Source: a virus | Taxonomy: Duplodnaviria; Caudoviricetes | Virus record (IMG/VR): IMGVR_UViG_2740892280_000002 | Coordinates: 15,512 to 79,511 of that record | Direction: 5' to 3' (one strand) | DNA: 64,000 bases | Part shown: positions 4,658-29,603 of the stretch, piece after piece | Layout of the letters: every line of letters begins with the position of its first letter | How positions within the stretch are numbered: position 1 is the stretch's first letter | Program-made: the position numbers and the translations under genes | Notes under the pieces: model-generated | Told to the model about the DNA's origin: nothing | Database searches by the model: none | What the model saw: the letters and a program-made list of their open reading frames with translations, nothing else

Positions 4658-4895
4658 ACTTTTCGATCTCGGCCTAGGAGGGGATTTAACCCCTCCGAAA
4701 GCCTTCCCGGTCTACGGGCGGACTTCCTTCGGAGATCTCTCCGAATGCCCGTCCTGCGGCTTCAAAATCCCATTCAACGCAAAAGGCGACTTCGAGACGC
4801 TCGATCTCTTCGGAGAGGCGAAAGAGGTTCCGACCGATTGCCCGGCTTGTCGCGAGGAATACGACGCGGGAGCCAATCTTAGGAGGATCCATTGA
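4650..4895 (+). CDS. zinc-ribbon protein
   Basis: CPSC and CPAC pairs. Confidence 0.6.
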   Translation: MTELFDLGLGGDLTPPKAFPVYGRTSFGDLSECPSCGFKIPFNAKGDFETLDLFGEAKEVPTDCPACREEYDAGANLRRIH

Positions 4896-5317
4896 TCGTT
4901 GATCATTACGCCAAGCTTACGGAAAAGCTCGCATCGGTTGATTGGGGGAAACTCCGAAACCAGACGCTTTACCCTGCGGAGCGAATTATCGCTCTTAGGG
5001 ACTCCGGCGGCTCTCTTGTCTACATCGCGGAGCTTTCCAAGGGATCGCTAGCAACCTCGGCGGATCTCTCCGCAAACGACTTTGAGACGCTTTTCAAAGA
5101 CCCGGCAACGGTCCCGACCTGGGCGGCTACGGCGCTCCAAAAGCTTGGCTATATCGATCAGGATGACTTCCTCGGGATCGACAACGTCCAGCACCAGGCG
5201 CTCCGGGATTCAAGGATCAAGACAGCCCTTCGCCTTATCCGGTCTTACTCCGACTTGATCGGCGTTGAATTGACCGGAGAACAGCTCGCTCATATCGAGC
5301 GGATGGAGGGGAAATGA
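4892..5317 (+). CDS. hypothetical protein
   Basis: 4-nt overlaps on both sides within operon. Confidence 0.6.
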   Translation: MIVDHYAKLTEKLASVDWGKLRNQTLYPAERIIALRDSGGSLVYIAELSKGSLATSADLSANDFETLFKDPATVPTWAATALQKLGYIDQDDFLGIDNVQHQALRDSRIKTALRLIRSYSDLIGVELTGEQLAHIERMEGK

Positions 5318-6465
5318 AGCCCTCCTACCGCGTCCCGACCGTTGCGGAGGTCAAGGCAAGGGAAGGCGAGAACGGCTACAAGGTCGCGTCCTTCTTTGCC
5401 GGTTGCGGCGGGTCTTCGTTCGGCTACCGGCTCGCCGGGTTCAAGGTCGTCTATGCAAACGAATTCGTAGAGGAGGCACGCAATGCCTACGCCGCAAACG
5501 CCGGGGAAGGGACAATCATCGATGGCCGAGATATACGGTCCGTCGATCCGCAAGATGTACTCTACGCAGCAGACCTTGAGGAGGGAGAGCTTGATATCCT
5601 CGACGGATCACCTCCCTGCGCAAGCTTTTCCATGGCCGGTGCAAGAGACCGATTGTGGGGAAAAGAAAAGAACTACTCCGACGTCAAACAACGAACTGAC
5701 GATCTCTTCGATCACTATGTCCGGATGGTTGATGGAATCCGACCGAAAGTCTTCCAAGCGGAAAACGTCGCAGGAATGGTCAGGGGATCTTCGGTCGGAC
5801 ACTTCCTTAACGCCCTCGACGACTTCGAGCGAGCAGGATACGACGTTGAAGCCCGACTCGTTAATTTTGCATTCCTCGGATGCCCACAAAGTCGTGTTCG
5901 ACTATTTTTCCAAGGCGTTAGAAGAGATCTGGTCGAAGAGTTTAATGTCCGGCCATCCTTCCCGAAGCCCCTCGGATATACCTACTCAATCGCCGACGCC
6001 TGCCCGTGGGTTGTTCCCGATCTTGGCGATACCGTCGAACTAGATAGATCAGAAAGTCTGATCAATCAGGCTGGCATTGATTTGAGCGTCGAATTAGCGT
6101 CACGCATGGATCGTCAAATGACCGACCCGTCAAAAGCGTATGCGGTCGGCGAAGAATGGCTCAAACTCAAGCCCGGCGAGCAGTCGGATCGGTTCTTCCA
6201 ATTGGTCCGCTGCGATCCCGACAAGCCTGCGCCGACGATTACAGCGACGGGCGGTCACCCGTCTGCGGCCTCGGTAACCCACCCTTACGAGAATCGGAAA
6301 TTCTCGATTGCTGAAGTCCGGCGGCTATCCGGCTTCCCTGACGACTTCGTCTTTACCGGATCTTACATGCAGCAGTTTGAACGCGCTGGGCGTTCGGTCC
6401 TTCCGTTCGGGATGATGCGGCTTGCCGATACCATCGAATCCGAAATCCTCGACAGGCTTGTCTAG
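5314..6465 (+). CDS. C5 cytosine DNA methyltransferase family; possible carboxymethyltransferase
   Basis: Motif I FAGCGG, catalytic GSPPC, ENV, QSRVR; motif X reads GRSV instead of GN(A/S)V. Confidence 0.9.
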   Translation: MKPSYRVPTVAEVKAREGENGYKVASFFAGCGGSSFGYRLAGFKVVYANEFVEEARNAYAANAGEGTIIDGRDIRSVDPQDVLYAADLEEGELDILDGSPPCASFSMAGARDRLWGKEKNYSDVKQRTDDLFDHYVRMVDGIRPKVFQAENVAGMVRGSSVGHFLNALDDFERAGYDVEARLVNFAFLGCPQSRVRLFFQGVRRDLVEEFNVRPSFPKPLGYTYSIADACPWVVPDLGDTVELDRSESLINQAGIDLSVELASRMDRQMTDPSKAYAVGEEWLKLKPGEQSDRFFQLVRCDPDKPAPTITATGGHPSAASVTHPYENRKFSIAEVRRLSGFPDDFVFTGSYMQQFERAGRSVLPFGMMRLADTIESEILDRLV

Positions 6466-6487
6466 CTTGTAGCCAAAAGGAGAAAAA

Positions 6488-6667: not shown

Positions 6668-6837
6668 TGATCAAACGCCTCAAGCGATGGTTTAAGCGCC
6701 GGGAGCTAAAGGATCTTCTCCGGATGGCCGTCGTCTACAAGTTCCGGGCTCTCCTAAACGGCGATCACGCAACGGCTAAGCGCTACGATCAGATCGTAAG
6801 GAACATCCGACAAGAGCTCCGGGAACTCGAAGCATGA
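6667..6837 (+). CDS. hypothetical protein (56 aa)
   Basis: Translationally coupled on both sides (TGATG, ATGA). Confidence 0.55.
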   Translation: MIKRLKRWFKRRELKDLLRMAVVYKFRALLNGDHATAKRYDQIVRNIRQELRELEA

Positions 6838-7208
6838 ACGGCGTTCAATTCGTTTTCGTCTTCGGCTCTAACCTTGCTGGCCGGCACGGCAAGGGAGCCG
6901 CCCTCTACGCAAAGCAACACTTCGGCGCGGAATACGGCGTCGGGGTAGGGCGGACCGGCAACGCTTACGCTATCCCGACAAAGGATAGAGAGCTCCGGAC
7001 GCTCTCTCTTGAGGTTGTCGAGGAGGGTATCAAGGCGTTTATTGAATACGCCCGCGAGCGAGCTCGGGAAGCGCCCTATGAGATCTTCATCCTAACGCCT
7101 ATCGGTTGCGGGCTAGCGGGTCATGCTAAGGCGAATATCGCCGAGATCTTCAAGCGGCTCAGCTTGCCGGAAAACGTGCTCTTGTCGAATACCTGGGTTA
7201 CCGACTAG
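6834..7208 (+). CDS. A1S_2505-like phage non-structural protein
   Basis: FVFGSNLAGRHGKGAA, YAIPT, TPIGCGLAG signature recalled for this family. Confidence 0.7.
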   Translation: MNGVQFVFVFGSNLAGRHGKGAALYAKQHFGAEYGVGVGRTGNAYAIPTKDRELRTLSLEVVEEGIKAFIEYARERAREAPYEIFILTPIGCGLAGHAKANIAEIFKRLSLPENVLLSNTWVTD

Positions 7209-13069: not shown

Positions 13070-13372
13070 CTAACGAACAAGCTCGACCGGCATCCCCCAG
13101 CGGTCGGCGAGGTACTCGATAACGATGACCGCCTCCTCGCGCGTCCGGCAGTCCGTAAGCGCGTCAACGCCTCCGGCCTTTAGGTGGAGGTAGACCGACC
13201 AGAGCTCCGCGTCCTCGGGCTCGCAAGGCTCGAATTGGGTTCCCTCTTGGTCCTCTTCGGAAACGTCCCTGACGCAGTTCAATTCGAGCGTGTCGTAGAT
13301 CGATAGCTCCTCGGCGGTCGGCTCCCGTTCTCCCGGCCAGCAGTTGTAGAGGACAGCGTTAGTTAGGTTCAC
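13070..13372 (-). CDS. hypothetical protein (100 aa)
   Basis: GGAGGG RBS with GTG 13372. Confidence 0.55.
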   Translation of the reverse strand: MNLTNAVLYNCWPGEREPTAEELSIYDTLELNCVRDVSEEDQEGTQFEPCEPEDAELWSVYLHLKAGGVDALTDCRTREEAVIVIEYLADRWGMPVELVR

Positions 13373-13766
13373 TTGCTGCCCTCCGTGCTTCGAATTGAAC
13401 CCACGCCGCAGCCGCTTGGAAGAGAGCGGCGGCAGGGCTATCGCCGATCCCATGATAACCTGGCCCCATATCGATATCGGCGCGGAAACCGCTTACGCGC
13501 GAGACCGGGTCGACATACGGGTAAATCTCGATATCGGGCTGCGTATATTTGAGCTCCTCAAGCCAGGAATTCCAGCGCCGGACGGCTAGGTCCATATCGC
13601 TTGCGAAAGGCCCTCTACGACCGCAAGAGAAGCATTTGACTGCGGTCTTTCGCTCTCCCGGCTTTTCCGTAAACTGGTCGACCGAGGCGAGGGTATTTTT
13701 CGACCCGCACTTCGGGCAGGGGTTCGCGTCGTCGCGAATATTAAGCTGAAACTTTGGTTCGATCAT
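13359..13766 (-). CDS. Lar-like restriction alleviation zinc-ribbon protein with C-terminal extension
   Basis: CPKCGS..VKCFSCGRRGP..AVRRWN pattern; GGAGG RBS. Confidence 0.6.
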   Translation of the reverse strand: MIEPKFQLNIRDDANPCPKCGSKNTLASVDQFTEKPGERKTAVKCFSCGRRGPFASDMDLAVRRWNSWLEELKYTQPDIEIYPYVDPVSRVSGFRADIDMGPGYHGIGDSPAAALFQAAAAWVQFEARRAASEPN

Positions 13767-14082
13767 TGATCCAGCCCTCCGTTTGATGTTCGCGCCAAGC
13801 GCCATTTGTGATCCGATCCCAGAAGCCGGCACCGCCTTCGCATTCCGATTTGTACGGGATAACCGAGTGGTGCAATTCCCTTTGAAGCATCTTCCCGCGA
13901 GCGTGGTCGTCCGGGTAGATCGCGCAGCTACCTAGCTCCTTAAGTACCCACGGCGGAGGGAGTTTCGGCCACTCCTTGAGGGAGCCGAGGAGATCGTAGT
14001 GAACCGGCGCCATCTGCTCGAAAGACGCGGCCTTGTAGCTTTCGGGTAGGTCGGTAGCGAGTTGGAAGCGTTCCACGATCAA
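13741..14082 (-). CDS. hypothetical protein
   Basis: GGAGGG RBS, operon position. Confidence 0.5.
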   Translation of the reverse strand: MIVERFQLATDLPESYKAASFEQMAPVHYDLLGSLKEWPKLPPPWVLKELGSCAIYPDDHARGKMLQRELHHSVIPYKSECEGGAGFWDRITNGAWREHQTEGWINDRTKVSA

Positions 14083-15428: not shown

Positions 15429-15650
15429 CTATGATTTGTCCAAAAACCCAGGGCGCAGTTGGGCGGTTGGTATAGGAGCCCAGGCGCGAACGCGAGCGCC
15501 AAAATTAGCGCCGTAGTAGAAGGCGTAGGGCTCATCCCATACGAGCTTGTCCTGAAGCCTCCCGATAAAGATCCCGCCTTCGCTCGCTAGGAAGATCGCA
15601 TCCTTATCCTTCGGGCATTCGTCCAACTTCCGGCTAAGGATGATACTCAT
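15429..15650 (-). CDS. hypothetical protein (73 aa)
   Basis: 3' part of track ORF; GGAGG RBS; ATGA overlap. Confidence 0.5.
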   Translation of the reverse strand: MSIILSRKLDECPKDKDAIFLASEGGIFIGRLQDKLVWDEPYAFYYGANFGARVRAWAPIPTAQLRPGFLDKS

Positions 15651-20722: not shown

Positions 20723-20886
20723 TTCGTCTCTCCGTGTTTGAAAATCAACGTTATGCGACTTTTACGGCGAGTCCGTGTAGCTGTCCATAACCAAAATTAA
20801 AATTAGTGTTCATTTTTAGATTTGCGTTTTTGGCGACGAATCTTTAGACAAACCACCGGCAAACGGCCATGAGAGAAAGGAATCAA

Positions 20887-21585
20887 ATGACAACGAAGAG
20901 CGCAAAGGTAGGAAGCTGGAGCTTTGAGCGGACTTCTATCGCGGAAGAGTTTGACGCCCACGTCCGCCGGCATCTCCCTTGGTATGACCTTCTTAGCGAC
21001 AAGGTCGCTGATATAGCCGCCGGGTATCTCCCGGCGAACGGCGCTCTACTTGACTGCGGCTGCTCTACCGCCGATCTCGCGATCCGGATGCAAGACGTCT
21101 TCAAGTCCCGCGATGCGAGCTACGTCGGCGTTGATGTTTCCGAGGAAATGGTCGAGATCGCGACCGAGAGGCTCGACTCCGACGAATACCGGATCAACTT
21201 CCAGCTTGAGGCGGTCGATGTTTTCGAAGAGCTTTCACGGAAGCCGGAGGCTTACGACGTGATCGTAGCGAACCTGTTCATCATGTTTCTTCCGCCGGAG
21301 GATCGCAGGTTCTTTATTTCGAAATCCGTTTCCGCGCTCAAGAGGGGCGGAATCCTGATTGTCGTCGACCGTATCGAGCCCGAGGGCGGTTATCTTTCGA
21401 GCGTCCTTTCCCGGTCGACAATGGCCGACAAGATGCGAGCCGGGACTCCGCTTGAAGAGATCGCGGCGAAAGAGGTTTCCCTAATCGGCGTTCAACGCCC
21501 GACCAACCCGAATATTTACTCGGGCTTCAAGCAGTTTTTCCAGTTCGGCGACTTTGTCGGCTACGTCCTCGAAAACAACTACTAA
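20887..21585 (+). CDS. CmoA-like class I SAM-dependent enzyme
   Basis: WSFE..IAEEFDAHVRRHLPWYD, LLDCGCSTA, GVDVSEEM, GGILIVVDR, K.SL.GV resemble CmoA. Confidence 0.7.
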   Translation: MTTKSAKVGSWSFERTSIAEEFDAHVRRHLPWYDLLSDKVADIAAGYLPANGALLDCGCSTADLAIRMQDVFKSRDASYVGVDVSEEMVEIATERLDSDEYRINFQLEAVDVFEELSRKPEAYDVIVANLFIMFLPPEDRRFFISKSVSALKRGGILIVVDRIEPEGGYLSSVLSRSTMADKMRAGTPLEEIAAKEVSLIGVQRPTNPNIYSGFKQFFQFGDFVGYVLENNY

Positions 21586-24488: not shown

Positions 24489-24625
24489 GTAAAGATCCGG
24501 GAAACAAGGCCGTAGCCGATAACGACCGAGGCGATTGTAAAAAGACCTCCGAACATACCGAGGGTGGTCCAGACGATTGCTTCGATGGCCGTAAAGCTTT
24601 CCGTGTTTTCCGTATCCTTAGACAT
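24485..24625 (-). CDS. small membrane protein (46 aa, not in track)
   Basis: MSKDTENTESFTAIEAIVWTTLGMFGGLFTIASVVIGYGLVSRIFT; fills operon gap. Confidence 0.5.
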   Translation of the reverse strand: MSKDTENTESFTAIEAIVWTTLGMFGGLFTIASVVIGYGLVSRIFT

Positions 24626-25031
24626 GTGCAAACGAGCTCCGGAGACCGCCGAAGAGATCCGGCTCGTTATTCGCGGGCTCGCCGTATTGGAGGATCATCA
24701 TTCCGTGGTCGAGCGCGACCTGGATCATGTCTTTCGTTCCGGAATTACCGGGGAAGGCGACAAGCGTCGAGTCCGGGTAGCCGAAGGCCATTTCGCGGTT
24801 TCGGATCGGTCCCGCGCCTTTGCCGAAGCGGTCCCAGTCCGCCTTGACGGTTACGACCTGAACGCCGTTAGCGATTGCCCAATCCTTCGCAAAGGTATCG
24901 ACCCCGCGCGCGCCACCGTTTACGAGCCGGGTAATCGGTCCGCTTCGGCTTGCGTGTAATTTCGAGAGGGTTTCGGAGACGAAAGGACCGTCGTCGTAGT
25001 CACGGCCTCCGGTTACAATAACATTCAGCAC
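24618..25031 (-). CDS. SLOG family (YspA/DUF2493) protein
   Basis: VIVTGGRDY, NGGARGVD, ADWD..GKGAGPIRN, VAFPG..GT. Confidence 0.85.
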   Translation of the reverse strand: MLNVIVTGGRDYDDGPFVSETLSKLHASRSGPITRLVNGGARGVDTFAKDWAIANGVQVVTVKADWDRFGKGAGPIRNREMAFGYPDSTLVAFPGNSGTKDMIQVALDHGMMILQYGEPANNEPDLFGGLRSSFAHV

Positions 25032-27133: not shown

Positions 27134-28747
27134 ATGCAGCATCAGACGGGTATTGAAACAGTCGCAGCGTCCTACGCTCACTCAATCGAGGACTGGGTCG
27201 CCTGCCGCGATGCAAGCAACGGTCAGCGTGAAGTCCACCGAAAAGGCGAGGTTTACCTCCCGCGCCTCGGCGGCCAGGACGCGGACGAATACAAAGCCTA
27301 TCTCCTACGCTCTACCTTCCTCGGAGCGTTCGGTCGGACCGTCGAAGCTTTCTCCGGAATGATCTTCCGGCGCGACCCGGTAATAAAGCTCCCCGGCAAA
27401 ATGGAGGAGTGGCAAAAGGATGTTACCGGGGACGGTATCGATCTCGTGTCGTTCGCTTCTATGGTCGTCGATGAATCTCTAATTACCGCCCGATCCGGCA
27501 TCCTGGTCGACTTCCCGTCGACCGATGGATATGGCGACTTGACTATCGCTGAAGCCGAGCGCTTGAAGCTTGTTCCGTTCCTTCGCCTCTATACCGCCGA
27601 GTCTATCGTTAACTGGCGCTTCGGCGACCTCCCGAACGGCGGGTATGGCGTTGTCAAGGTCGTGCTCCTTGAACATGTCGAGGAGGAGTCCGTCTCTAAC
27701 GAATTCGAGACGGTTGAGCTCCGGCAGTACCGTGTTCTTGACTTCCATGAGGGAGAGTACCGGCAGCGTATCTACCGGCAGGATCAAAAAGGCGCAACGA
27801 AGCGCCGGACAGGGGTCGTAGACGCGAACCGGGAGGAGAAGCCGACCGGAGAGACGCCGAACGCCGACAGCCTGTATACGGGCCAGAAAATCTCTGGCTA
27901 TCATCTGTATGAGGTTTTCCCGCAGATCGGCGGGAAGCGTCTCAACTATCTACCGTTTACGTTTATCAACGTCCGGACGCTAACGGCGAATGTCGAAAAG
28001 CCGCCTATGCTTGATCTGGTCAACCAGAACTTTCAGCACTACCGGATCTCGGCTGACTACTATCACGGCCTGCACTATGTCGGGTTGCCGACCCCGTACA
28101 TTACCGGCGTCTCTGCCGACGAAGCTCCGACCCAGATCGGTCCTTCGCAGATCTGGCATCTAAGCAACCCGGAATCAAAGGTCGGTTACCTACAGGTTGA
28201 CGCTGCGGGCTTCCAATCTCTTCGTGAAGAAATGGTCGCTATCGAGGGTCGTATGGCTGCGATGGGCGCTCGCATGCTTGCGCCGGAAAAGAGCGGCGTC
28301 GAAGCTGCCGAGACGCTCAATATCAAGAGCCGGGGAGAGCACTCGACGCTCTCCAAGATTTCGGGAACCGTCTCGCGCGGTATCGAGCAGGCTTTGATTA
28401 TCGCCCGCGACTGGATGAGCACCTCCGGCGAGGTTGTCTTCGAGCTCAATAAGGACTTTGTCGCAGCGACTTTGACCTCCGGGGATATTACCGCGCTCCT
28501 CGGCGCTTGGCAGGCCGGGGCGATCTCTAAAGAGGTTCTCTTCGATAAGCTCAAGCAGGGCGAGATCATCCGCGAGGATGTTGAATTCGAAGACCATGAA
28601 GAGGCTATCGAAGAGGGCGCGGAAGATCTCGCCGGTATGTTCGGCGCTACTGAAGAAAGCCAAGACCAGGCTGGGAGCCGGTCGCCGGCAGGAGAGCAGG
28701 ATGAGGAAGCTCTCGTAGATCAGGAAGATCCTGAAGGCTCGGAGTAG
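27134..28747 (+). CDS. portal protein (DUF4055-type)
   Basis: YLPR, YLLRSTF.G...RTV, PFTF, PPMLDL..QN..HY..SADY, GA(R)ML; position after terminase. Confidence 0.9.
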   Translation: MQHQTGIETVAASYAHSIEDWVACRDASNGQREVHRKGEVYLPRLGGQDADEYKAYLLRSTFLGAFGRTVEAFSGMIFRRDPVIKLPGKMEEWQKDVTGDGIDLVSFASMVVDESLITARSGILVDFPSTDGYGDLTIAEAERLKLVPFLRLYTAESIVNWRFGDLPNGGYGVVKVVLLEHVEEESVSNEFETVELRQYRVLDFHEGEYRQRIYRQDQKGATKRRTGVVDANREEKPTGETPNADSLYTGQKISGYHLYEVFPQIGGKRLNYLPFTFINVRTLTANVEKPPMLDLVNQNFQHYRISADYYHGLHYVGLPTPYITGVSADEAPTQIGPSQIWHLSNPESKVGYLQVDAAGFQSLREEMVAIEGRMAAMGARMLAPEKSGVEAAETLNIKSRGEHSTLSKISGTVSRGIEQALIIARDWMSTSGEVVFELNKDFVAATLTSGDITALLGAWQAGAISKEVLFDKLKQGEIIREDVEFEDHEEAIEEGAEDLAGMFGATEESQDQAGSRSPAGEQDEEALVDQEDPEGSE

Positions 28748-29345
28748 GGGAGAATTTCTCGGTCTCGTTACCGACAACGTCCCAGCCGGGCGCTGCCGAT
28801 CGTGCAAACATTTCAAGCCTTGGAACGTCGCCGCATAGAGAGACGATATCGTCACGAATTCGGTCCGGTTTGCGAGAATGCTCGCGGACCGGGTCGACGA
28901 CAAGGCGGCGGACCGATTTAGAAACCCTCTTCGGCTTGCCGCGAGTTGCGAATAGGCATAGCTCGGGGTTTGCTCGCGTCCAATATCCCATGCCGACGTG
29001 AAACGATTTATCGACGAACGCACGGCCGGAAATAAGCGCGTTCCAATCGAAGCGCTTGCGCAGCTTTACCCAATTGAAAGCGACAGTCTTAAACTCGAAA
29101 CCCCACGCCTCGATTACTTCGAGCGTATGGGGGAGCATGTGATCAAGTCCCCAAATAAAAAGCGCCGCGTCTTTAGCACACCAATCAGCGACCGGGATCG
29201 CCTTGATATCGTCGAGCGTCATACAGTCGTAGTGCTGCTCGGGCGAGCGCGCTTTCCCCTTTGTCGACCAAGTCAAATGTGTCCACGCCGGGTCGGCATA
29301 AATCACCTGATAGTCGTTGCGGGGAGGGGTAGGGAATAACTCCAT
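28647..29345 (-). CDS. MT-A70 family amino-methyltransferase
   Basis: VIYADPAW, Y..MT.DDIKAIPV, LFIW, AWGF.FKT, WVK, GMGYWTR.N.E, HSRKP, EMFAR, GWD..GNE. Confidence 0.9.
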   Translation of the reverse strand: MELFPTPPRNDYQVIYADPAWTHLTWSTKGKARSPEQHYDCMTLDDIKAIPVADWCAKDAALFIWGLDHMLPHTLEVIEAWGFEFKTVAFNWVKLRKRFDWNALISGRAFVDKSFHVGMGYWTRANPELCLFATRGKPKRVSKSVRRLVVDPVREHSRKPDRIRDDIVSLCGDVPRLEMFARSAAPGWDVVGNETEKFSPTPSLQDLPDLRELPHPALLPATGSQPGLGFLQ

Positions 29346-29390
29346 CTCTTGCCTTTTCTTTTCTCTCTTCCTCCTTGTATTATCGGCGCT

Positions 29391-29603
29391 ATGGCAGGCT
29401 TTCAGGTAATCTCCGGCGGTAAAGACGGAGACGAAAAAAAGGAAAAAACTCCGTCGCAATGGGTATGCCCCAATTGCAATGGATCTGCTGCAATTCCGGC
29501 AGTCTTCGCCCCTATCGTCCGAGAGGGGAAAGTCGTAGACGGCACAGATCGATTTATATGCGCCCTCTGTTTGTCAGACGGCCATATCGTTCAAGTTTCC
29601 TAG
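29391..29603 (+). CDS. small zinc-ribbon protein
   Basis: CPNC and CALC pairs. Confidence 0.55.
   Translation: MAGFQVISGGKDGDEKKEKTPSQWVCPNCNGSAAIPAVFAPIVREGKVVDGTDRFICALCLSDGHIVQVS

Follow-up and report, generated by a model that had tools for sequence, protein, structure and literature searches.

The DNA considered here is a 64,000-nucleotide stretch (hereafter the window) of a tailed virus of the Caudoviricetes, corresponding to positions 15,512 to 79,511 of IMG/VR record IMGVR_UViG_2740892280_000002. Two of its genes are the subject of this report: one for a 383-amino-acid predicted DNA cytosine C5-carboxymethyltransferase of the CmoX type (5314..6465, + strand) and one for a 232-amino-acid CmoA-like protein, a predicted carboxy-S-adenosylmethionine (Cx-SAM) synthase (20887..21585, + strand). 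An initial annotation, made from the sequence alone, had paired these genes and proposed that the phage carboxymethylates its cytosines as an anti-restriction mark.

The transferase open reading frame (ORF) is covered by PF00145 (C5 cytosine DNA methylase) over the whole of the model (E 7e-48), and NCBIfam dcm matches it as well (E 2e-40). Motifs I, IV, VI, and VIII of the C5 methyltransferase fold are all present in the product, which contains FAGCGG at residues 28–33, SPPC at 99–102, ENV at 150–152, QSRVR at 192–196, and ERAGRSV at 356–362; the catalytic motifs listed in the initial annotation are thus intact. This is the sole C5 methyltransferase in the 79.5-kb record. Its closest relative of solved structure, identified with HMMER, is 8YF3 (E 1e-58, residues 14–382 against 11–372), the structure of SpCmoX; this enzyme, from Synechococcus phage S-B43, is a naturally occurring carboxymethyltransferase that acts on C5 of cytosine in DNA (Yang et al., Nat Commun, December 2025, PMC12783734). 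The two proteins are 41.5% identical in a global pairwise alignment. Cys102 of the SPPC motif, encoded at 5617..5619 (+), is the catalytic residue and corresponds to SpCmoX Cys98 by motif location and pairwise alignment, and the arginine singled out in the initial annotation, Arg360 of ERAGRSV, is confirmed as a CGT codon at 6391..6393 (+).

The alignment of Arg360 with the cofactor-pocket asparagine of C5 methyltransferases, which that annotation had assumed, was borne out. In HMMER alignments, the residue shares its column with the Asn of IGNSV in 3G7U, the Asn of IGNAV in M.HaeIII (1DCT), and Arg350 of 8YF3, and it is paired with SpCmoX R350 in the pairwise alignment as well. R350 of SpCmoX stands in for N304 of HhaI and is in contact with the carboxymethyl group of Cx-SAM; Cx-SAM is the only cofactor that the wild-type enzyme accepts, and an R350N mutant accepts neither Cx-SAM nor S-adenosylmethionine (SAM) (PMC12783734). 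The SpCmoX contacts F25, E47, F48, D69, C98, and R350 correspond one to one with F28, E50, F51, D73, C102, and R360 of the window enzyme, in which Arg360 is accordingly placed to serve as the predicted carboxylate-binding residue. This arrangement parallels that of engineered M.MpeI N374K, in which replacement of the motif-X Asn by a basic residue also permits the use of Cx-SAM (PMC12783734). M.MpeI N374K, a Lys variant made by engineering a CpG methylase, has kept its use of SAM (cited in PMC12783734), whereas the clade of the window enzyme is a natural one in which the Arg never varies and the tested member uses Cx-SAM only.

An arginine occupies the motif-X column in all 120 of the best database homologues (41–79% identity), with the consensus ERxGR[AS]VPP, and Arg360 is therefore a character of a clade rather than a chance substitution. 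Some of these homologues, from Roseibium, Brucella, and Azospirillum genomes, bear the annotation of cytosine methyltransferase. A scan of genome contigs with the window CmoX returned only three distant matches, all to metagenome-assembled genomes, and a megablast search of window positions 1–25000 against deposited phages gave no match. The criteria used by Yang et al. to search for CmoX were the SPPC motif and an Arg at the R350 position, and 5,615 candidate sequences were reported from sources that included IMG/VR (PMC12783734). Since both features are found in the window enzyme, it is a further example of a known system, and the chemistry is not new; the remark in the initial annotation that natural phage methyltransferase/CmoA pairs had recently been reported was correct, the pair in question being CmoA/CmoX of S-B43 (PMC12783734). 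The window enzyme and SpCmoX differ between motifs VIII and IX, which means that the window enzyme cannot be presumed to share the GC target of SpCmoX.

The second gene has two possible ATG start codons, at 20869 and 20887, of which the latter has the better ribosome-binding site and agrees with a 232-amino-acid database cluster. As a single sequence, its product matches generic class-I methyltransferase families in Pfam, and its best match in the Protein Data Bank is YecO/CmoA (3e-13), followed by an O-methyltransferase (2e-11). The phage family phrog_4752 matches it over its full length (E 3e-44) and also takes in E. coli CmoA, the validated SpCmoA, and the CmoA of Streptomyces phage TurkishDelight, which scores 165 bits compared to 152 for the window protein. 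The database relatives of the window protein define a divergent CmoA group, designated subfamily B here, with the invariant motifs HVRxxLPWYD, KExSLxGxQRP, and FGDFVG (the last also in the form F(R/Q)FGDFVG) and a shorter C-terminus. Searched against solved structures, a subfamily-B profile finds the CmoA entries 4GEK, 4IWN, and 1IM8 at 1e-26 to 3e-24 (4GEK at 1e-26), with the next family at 1e-14. Alignment of subfamily B to an alignment of canonical and phage CmoA proteins with hhalign gave a probability of 99.95% (E 6e-38) over 217 columns, lid included, and an AlphaFold model (mean predicted confidence, pLDDT, 81.7) has its best TM-scores to CmoA, at 0.79–0.81 (0.81 for 4GEK).

The residues through which CmoA contacts SAM, and the salt bridge of Arg199 to the cofactor carboxylate, were described by Byrne et al. 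(2013, PMC3663124). Of the E. coli CmoA residues, Tyr39, Asp62, Gly64, and Phe137 are kept in the window protein, Asp is found at Glu164, and the basic residues Arg143, Lys185, and Lys198 are kept as well. Thus, the similarity to bacterial CmoA (E. coli b1870, 4GEK/4IWN; H. influenzae YecO, 1IM8) extends over the full length, lid included, and over the SAM-binding residues, while identity is only ~21–24%, and the window protein differs in its subfamily-B motifs, its shorter C-terminus, and the lack of a CmoB partner. By these profile and structural comparisons, the predicted product of 20887–21585 is a full-length CmoA homologue of a divergent subfamily, not a canonical CmoA, and CmoA is its nearest characterised relative over the full length. 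The initial annotation of a CmoA-like Cx-SAM synthase at this position is upheld with a refinement: the ORF is real and encodes a full-length homologue, but the protein is not canonical, scores below the family cut-off, and does not have Arg199. A role in tRNA modification was considered and rejected; it is unlikely, since no CmoB was found in the record and no tRNA genes were found in the window.

Evidence for the function of subfamily B comes from the genes beside which it is found. A search for related loci with the single CmoA protein found nothing, and an alignment of the subfamily was needed; scanning of IMG/VR with two subfamily-B-specific peptide patterns then yielded 529 confirmed hits, from which 80 loci were retained. 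An Arg-type C5 transferase lies within 2 kb in 64 of the 80, and an Asn-type enzyme in none; the co-occurrence of such transferases with CmoA homologues had been named as a check in the initial annotation. In 56 loci the transferase carries ER.GR[AMS]V together with a PPC motif (30 of these within 200 bp), and in eight more a divergent RYERCGR(A/S)V transferase is encoded directly upstream of CmoA. The subfamily-B gene overlaps the 3′ end of the Arg-type transferase in three loci (L026, L027, and L028), and ParB and a CmoY-type ligase are also present in many of the 80. Canonical, Arg199-containing CmoA immediately adjoins CmoX in all five IMG/VR records with a CmoX ~42–49% identical to that of the window. 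Because 64 of the 80 loci place subfamily B within 2 kb of an Arg-type transferase, this association, together with profile homology, supports a Cx-SAM synthase role for the predicted product of 20887–21585.

Some subfamily-B loci depart from this arrangement. About ten of the 80 (among them L048, L049, L052, L073, L075, L077, L100, L110, and L114), and L018 (7395–10657; ENA ERZ23491156 scaffold_716), contain no C5 methyltransferase. The gene order in these cassettes is ParB, a 505-amino-acid protein, a 156-amino-acid protein (phrog_32036), CmoA, and terminase. The 505-amino-acid protein belongs to phrog_5475, is ParB-like at its N-terminus, and includes a domain of the class-I methyltransferase fold in which the motif VLDFGAG occurs; it is a candidate DNA transferase of another Cx-SAM-dependent type. 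No non-C5 candidates are reported by Yang et al. (PMC12783734). In L069 (1836–3499) and L076 (10001–11190), a PF00145 C5 methyltransferase (E 1e-52) lies directly downstream of the subfamily-B CmoA, and its motif X reads NGMSIPV, with Met where others carry Asn or Arg.

The window comes from a tailed prophage that is temperate and encodes a CI-like repressor. The source record is a 79,511-bp IMG/VR provirus, estimated by CheckV to be ~75% complete, and identical proteins are encoded on a bacterial contig of roughly 2 Mb. Upstream of the window are an integrase-like gene, ThyX, a class II ribonucleotide reductase, the CI-like repressor, and helicases. CmoX is preceded, in order, by a RecD-like helicase, the DnaN clamp, a zinc-ribbon ORF, and a 141-amino-acid ORF (4892..5317, +), the stop codon of which overlaps the CmoX start (ATGA). 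The latter ORF holds the slot that ParB takes upstream of CmoX in other phages; it has no match in Pfam, PHROG, or the protein Atlas, and it is kept at 40% identity in the same position in a Roseibium prophage. The single CmoA-like gene of the window opens a rightward block and is followed by a small ORF, the large terminase (TerL), the portal, and MuF.

The distance from the CmoX stop codon to the CmoA start codon is 14,422 bp, in agreement with the 14.4 kb given in the initial annotation, which regarded the split layout as the feature that stands out. The layout is indeed unusual when compared to adjacent cassettes, but it is not unique. The closest relative of the window, a syntenic prophage in an assembly of an uncultured Roseibium (an alphaproteobacterium), is 83.5% identical in TerL, 79% in CmoX, and 67% in CmoA, and its CmoX and CmoA genes are likewise separated, by 20.3 kb; the split is therefore shared within this prophage lineage. 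The phage of L027 and others like it have the gene order ParB-CmoX-CmoA-terminase. The window CmoA keeps its place before the terminase, which would fit an insertion of accessory genes between CmoX and CmoA. E. coli's own CmoA sufficed as an in-trans source of Cx-SAM for SpCmoX (PMC12783734); linkage is thus not needed, and the split has no obvious mechanistic consequence. The Roseibium prophage also contains a second CmoA-like paralogue (L017:6752–7420), 36% identical to that of the window and located 2.6 kb upstream of its main CmoA.

Of the 5,615 published CmoX contigs, 4,257 carry CmoA, 2,251 a ligase, and 1,660 ParBc (PMC12783734). The 79.5-kb record has no match to PF00733 (asparagine synthase, the family sought as a sign of a CmoY-like ligase), tblastn with two ligase types (SpCmoY and TurkishDelight gp124) found nothing in it, and no PP-loop (SGGxDS) or AMP-binding motif occurs in any of its frames. 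It has no match to the ParB family PF02195 either, and tblastn with three ParBs found nothing. The idea that a ParB or ligase is hidden among the unassigned ORFs was rejected, as it is supported by neither homology nor motifs. Because no amide ligase (CmoY) was found in the record, 5-carboxymethylcytosine (5cxmC) is probably the final mark in this phage, a conclusion that is less certain than the identities of the two enzymes.

The system that most resembles this one is that of S-B43. The transferases share the fold, the SPPC motif, the carboxylate-binding Arg, and all cofactor contacts, each phage encodes a CmoA homologue, and the predicted product and anti-restriction role are the same. The CmoA proteins are only 23% identical, the S-B43 genes form a single cmoA-cmoY-cmoX operon instead of lying far apart, and S-B43 is a lytic cyanomyovirus rather than a temperate prophage. 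With no CmoY in the window record, the glycine amide of S-B43 is not expected here. Among deposited phages, the best match to the window C5 transferase is that of TurkishDelight (44.5% identity), which has the motif ERIGRAV. Its genes form an adjacent gp121–gp125 cassette encoding two ParBs, the C5 methyltransferase, a glutamine-amidotransferase ligase, and a methyltransferase, whereas neither ParB nor an amidotransferase-type ligase was found in the window.

Taken together, these findings make it very probable that the prophage encodes a two-gene 5cxmC system of the published CmoA/CmoX kind, in which 5cxmC would shield the DNA and is probably the final mark. The CmoA-like protein would convert SAM and prephenate to Cx-SAM. 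CmoX, encoded with replication genes after DnaN, would flip out its target cytosine, whereupon Cys102 would attack C6 and the carboxymethyl group of Cx-SAM would be moved to C5; judging from the structure and assays of SpCmoX, Arg360 would bind the carboxylate of the donor and exclude plain SAM. The resulting 5cxmC would protect replicated phage DNA from restriction and, with no CmoY, would probably serve as the mark itself and not as a handle for further modification. A diffusible cofactor would link the action of the two enzymes, making their separation on the genome immaterial. HhaI is blocked by 5cxmC (PMC12783734), and the proposal in the initial annotation of Cx-SAM-dependent 5cxmC as an anti-restriction mark is supported, the same system having been shown experimentally for S-B43 (PMC12783734).

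Several observations pull the other way. The mark does not make site avoidance unnecessary, as several GC-rich palindromes are still strongly avoided: when both strands of the whole record are counted and compared to a maximal-order Markov model, CCGCGG, CTCGAG, and CCCGGG are each absent (~111, 85, and 73 expected, respectively), CGATCG occurs eight times compared to 104 expected, and GTAC and GGCC are found at 0.37 and 0.57 of expectation. These palindrome statistics give no target for CmoX. The record is only ~75% complete, so a ligase could lie outside it. The TIGR00740 score of the CmoA-like protein is ~68 bits (67.7–68.6) compared to the curated equivalog cut-off of 193.3, and as a single sequence it ties with the unrelated methyltransferase model CpaM. 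Foldseek E-values do not separate CmoA from the O-methyltransferases CysG and BelI, with CmoA tying with CysG. Finally, the window protein and the whole of subfamily B have Glu in the column of E. coli Arg199, the residue initially put forward as the signature of the Cx-SAM enzyme family. Since the protein is divergent, below the cut-off, and without Arg199, the grounds for its assignment are profile homology and the neighbouring genes of its relatives.

The low score, the Glu, the Foldseek tie, and the absence of linkage to CmoX in this genome would all be accounted for if the CmoA-like protein were an ordinary SAM-dependent methyltransferase, with CmoX using Cx-SAM of the host or idling where none is made. 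This is most unlikely, as the subfamily-B profile favours CmoA structures over any other methyltransferase by 12 orders of magnitude, most of the loci examined place subfamily B in an operon with an Arg-type C5 transferase, and the validated SpCmoA has the same Glu. Arg199 cannot be required for activity, because SpCmoA, which is more active than the E. coli enzyme (PMC12783734), has Glu in its place. In addition, among 14 control genomes, CmoA was above the cut-off only in E. coli and not in the alphaproteobacterium Caulobacter, a weak proxy which suggests that hosts of this prophage type may not supply Cx-SAM. That the transferase itself is a conventional enzyme making 5-methylcytosine from SAM despite Arg360 is barely credible; its catalytic methyltransferase motifs are all intact and specificity has been measured for just one natural member of the family, but that member, wild-type SpCmoX, takes Cx-SAM only, all of its cofactor contacts are conserved here, no homologue in the clade departs from the Arg, and the genome has kept a CmoA homologue.

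The fate of 5cxmC allows more latitude. It may be an intermediate on which an unrecognised enzyme acts in turn, the gene for that enzyme lying either within the window or in the portion of the prophage that the record lacks; amidation of the CmoY type would be one example. In favour of this, virion DNA of S-B43 contains only the glycine amide and no 5cxmC (PMC12783734), a ligase accompanies a sizeable share of the published CmoX genes, many of the ORFs between 6.5 and 20.8 kb match no family, and the record is incomplete. We consider such conversion unlikely, given the negative ligase and motif searches of the record, the lack of any such family among called genes in the 42 kb of the syntenic Roseibium prophage that were examined, and the fact that more than half of the published CmoX contigs are without a ligase. 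A bolder reading, to which we give a small but real chance, is that subfamily B, with Glu for Arg199 and an invariant QRP, is a functionally distinct class of phage Cx-SAM synthase and that 5cxmC is terminal and unamidated in this lineage. Such a class might release its product faster and so feed genome-wide modification, or might make a different SAM analogue, and the timing of the mark would be set by where the genes lie, with CmoX inside the replication operon and CmoA as the leading gene of the packaging operon.

With the two-gene 5cxmC system as the favoured reading, the known picture of the chemistry is unchanged, and the remaining interest lies in the divergent CmoA subfamily, the ligase- and ParB-free configuration, and the temperate lifestyle. 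The case confirms that a rule based on sequence only, namely an Arg at the motif-X Asn together with a CmoA homologue, correctly identifies DNA carboxymethyltransferases. With it, the published system now takes in a temperate prophage with its nearest relative in a Roseibium (alphaproteobacterial) genome; the text of Yang et al. makes no mention of prophages or temperate phages (PMC12783734). It also provides a natural case in which neither ligase nor ParB was detected, and if 5cxmC is terminal here, the phage would be a handy source of plain 5cxmC DNA. Subfamily B, being without the first proposed signature residue, is useful for testing which residues define Cx-SAM synthesis.

Further genes were noted in the window. 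Just downstream of CmoX, a 124-amino-acid phrog_2072 protein (6834–7208, +) is conserved in the Roseibium prophage. Further along are a Lar-like restriction-alleviation protein (13362–13832, −; PF14354, phrog_599), a YAcAr/SLOG-domain protein (24621–25031, −; PF10686), and a second DNA methyltransferase, of the MT-A70 type (28647–29459, −; PF05063, 9e-23; phrog_359, 1.5e-79), which is encoded between portal and MuF and shares 83% identity with its counterpart in the Roseibium prophage. Lastly, the sequence GTAGCCAAAA occurs in 36 copies with at most one mismatch, compared to 2.5 expected, between window positions 1319 and 61072; the copies are found mostly at gene boundaries and are oriented with transcription, as in the example at 6469–6478, directly after the CmoX stop codon.

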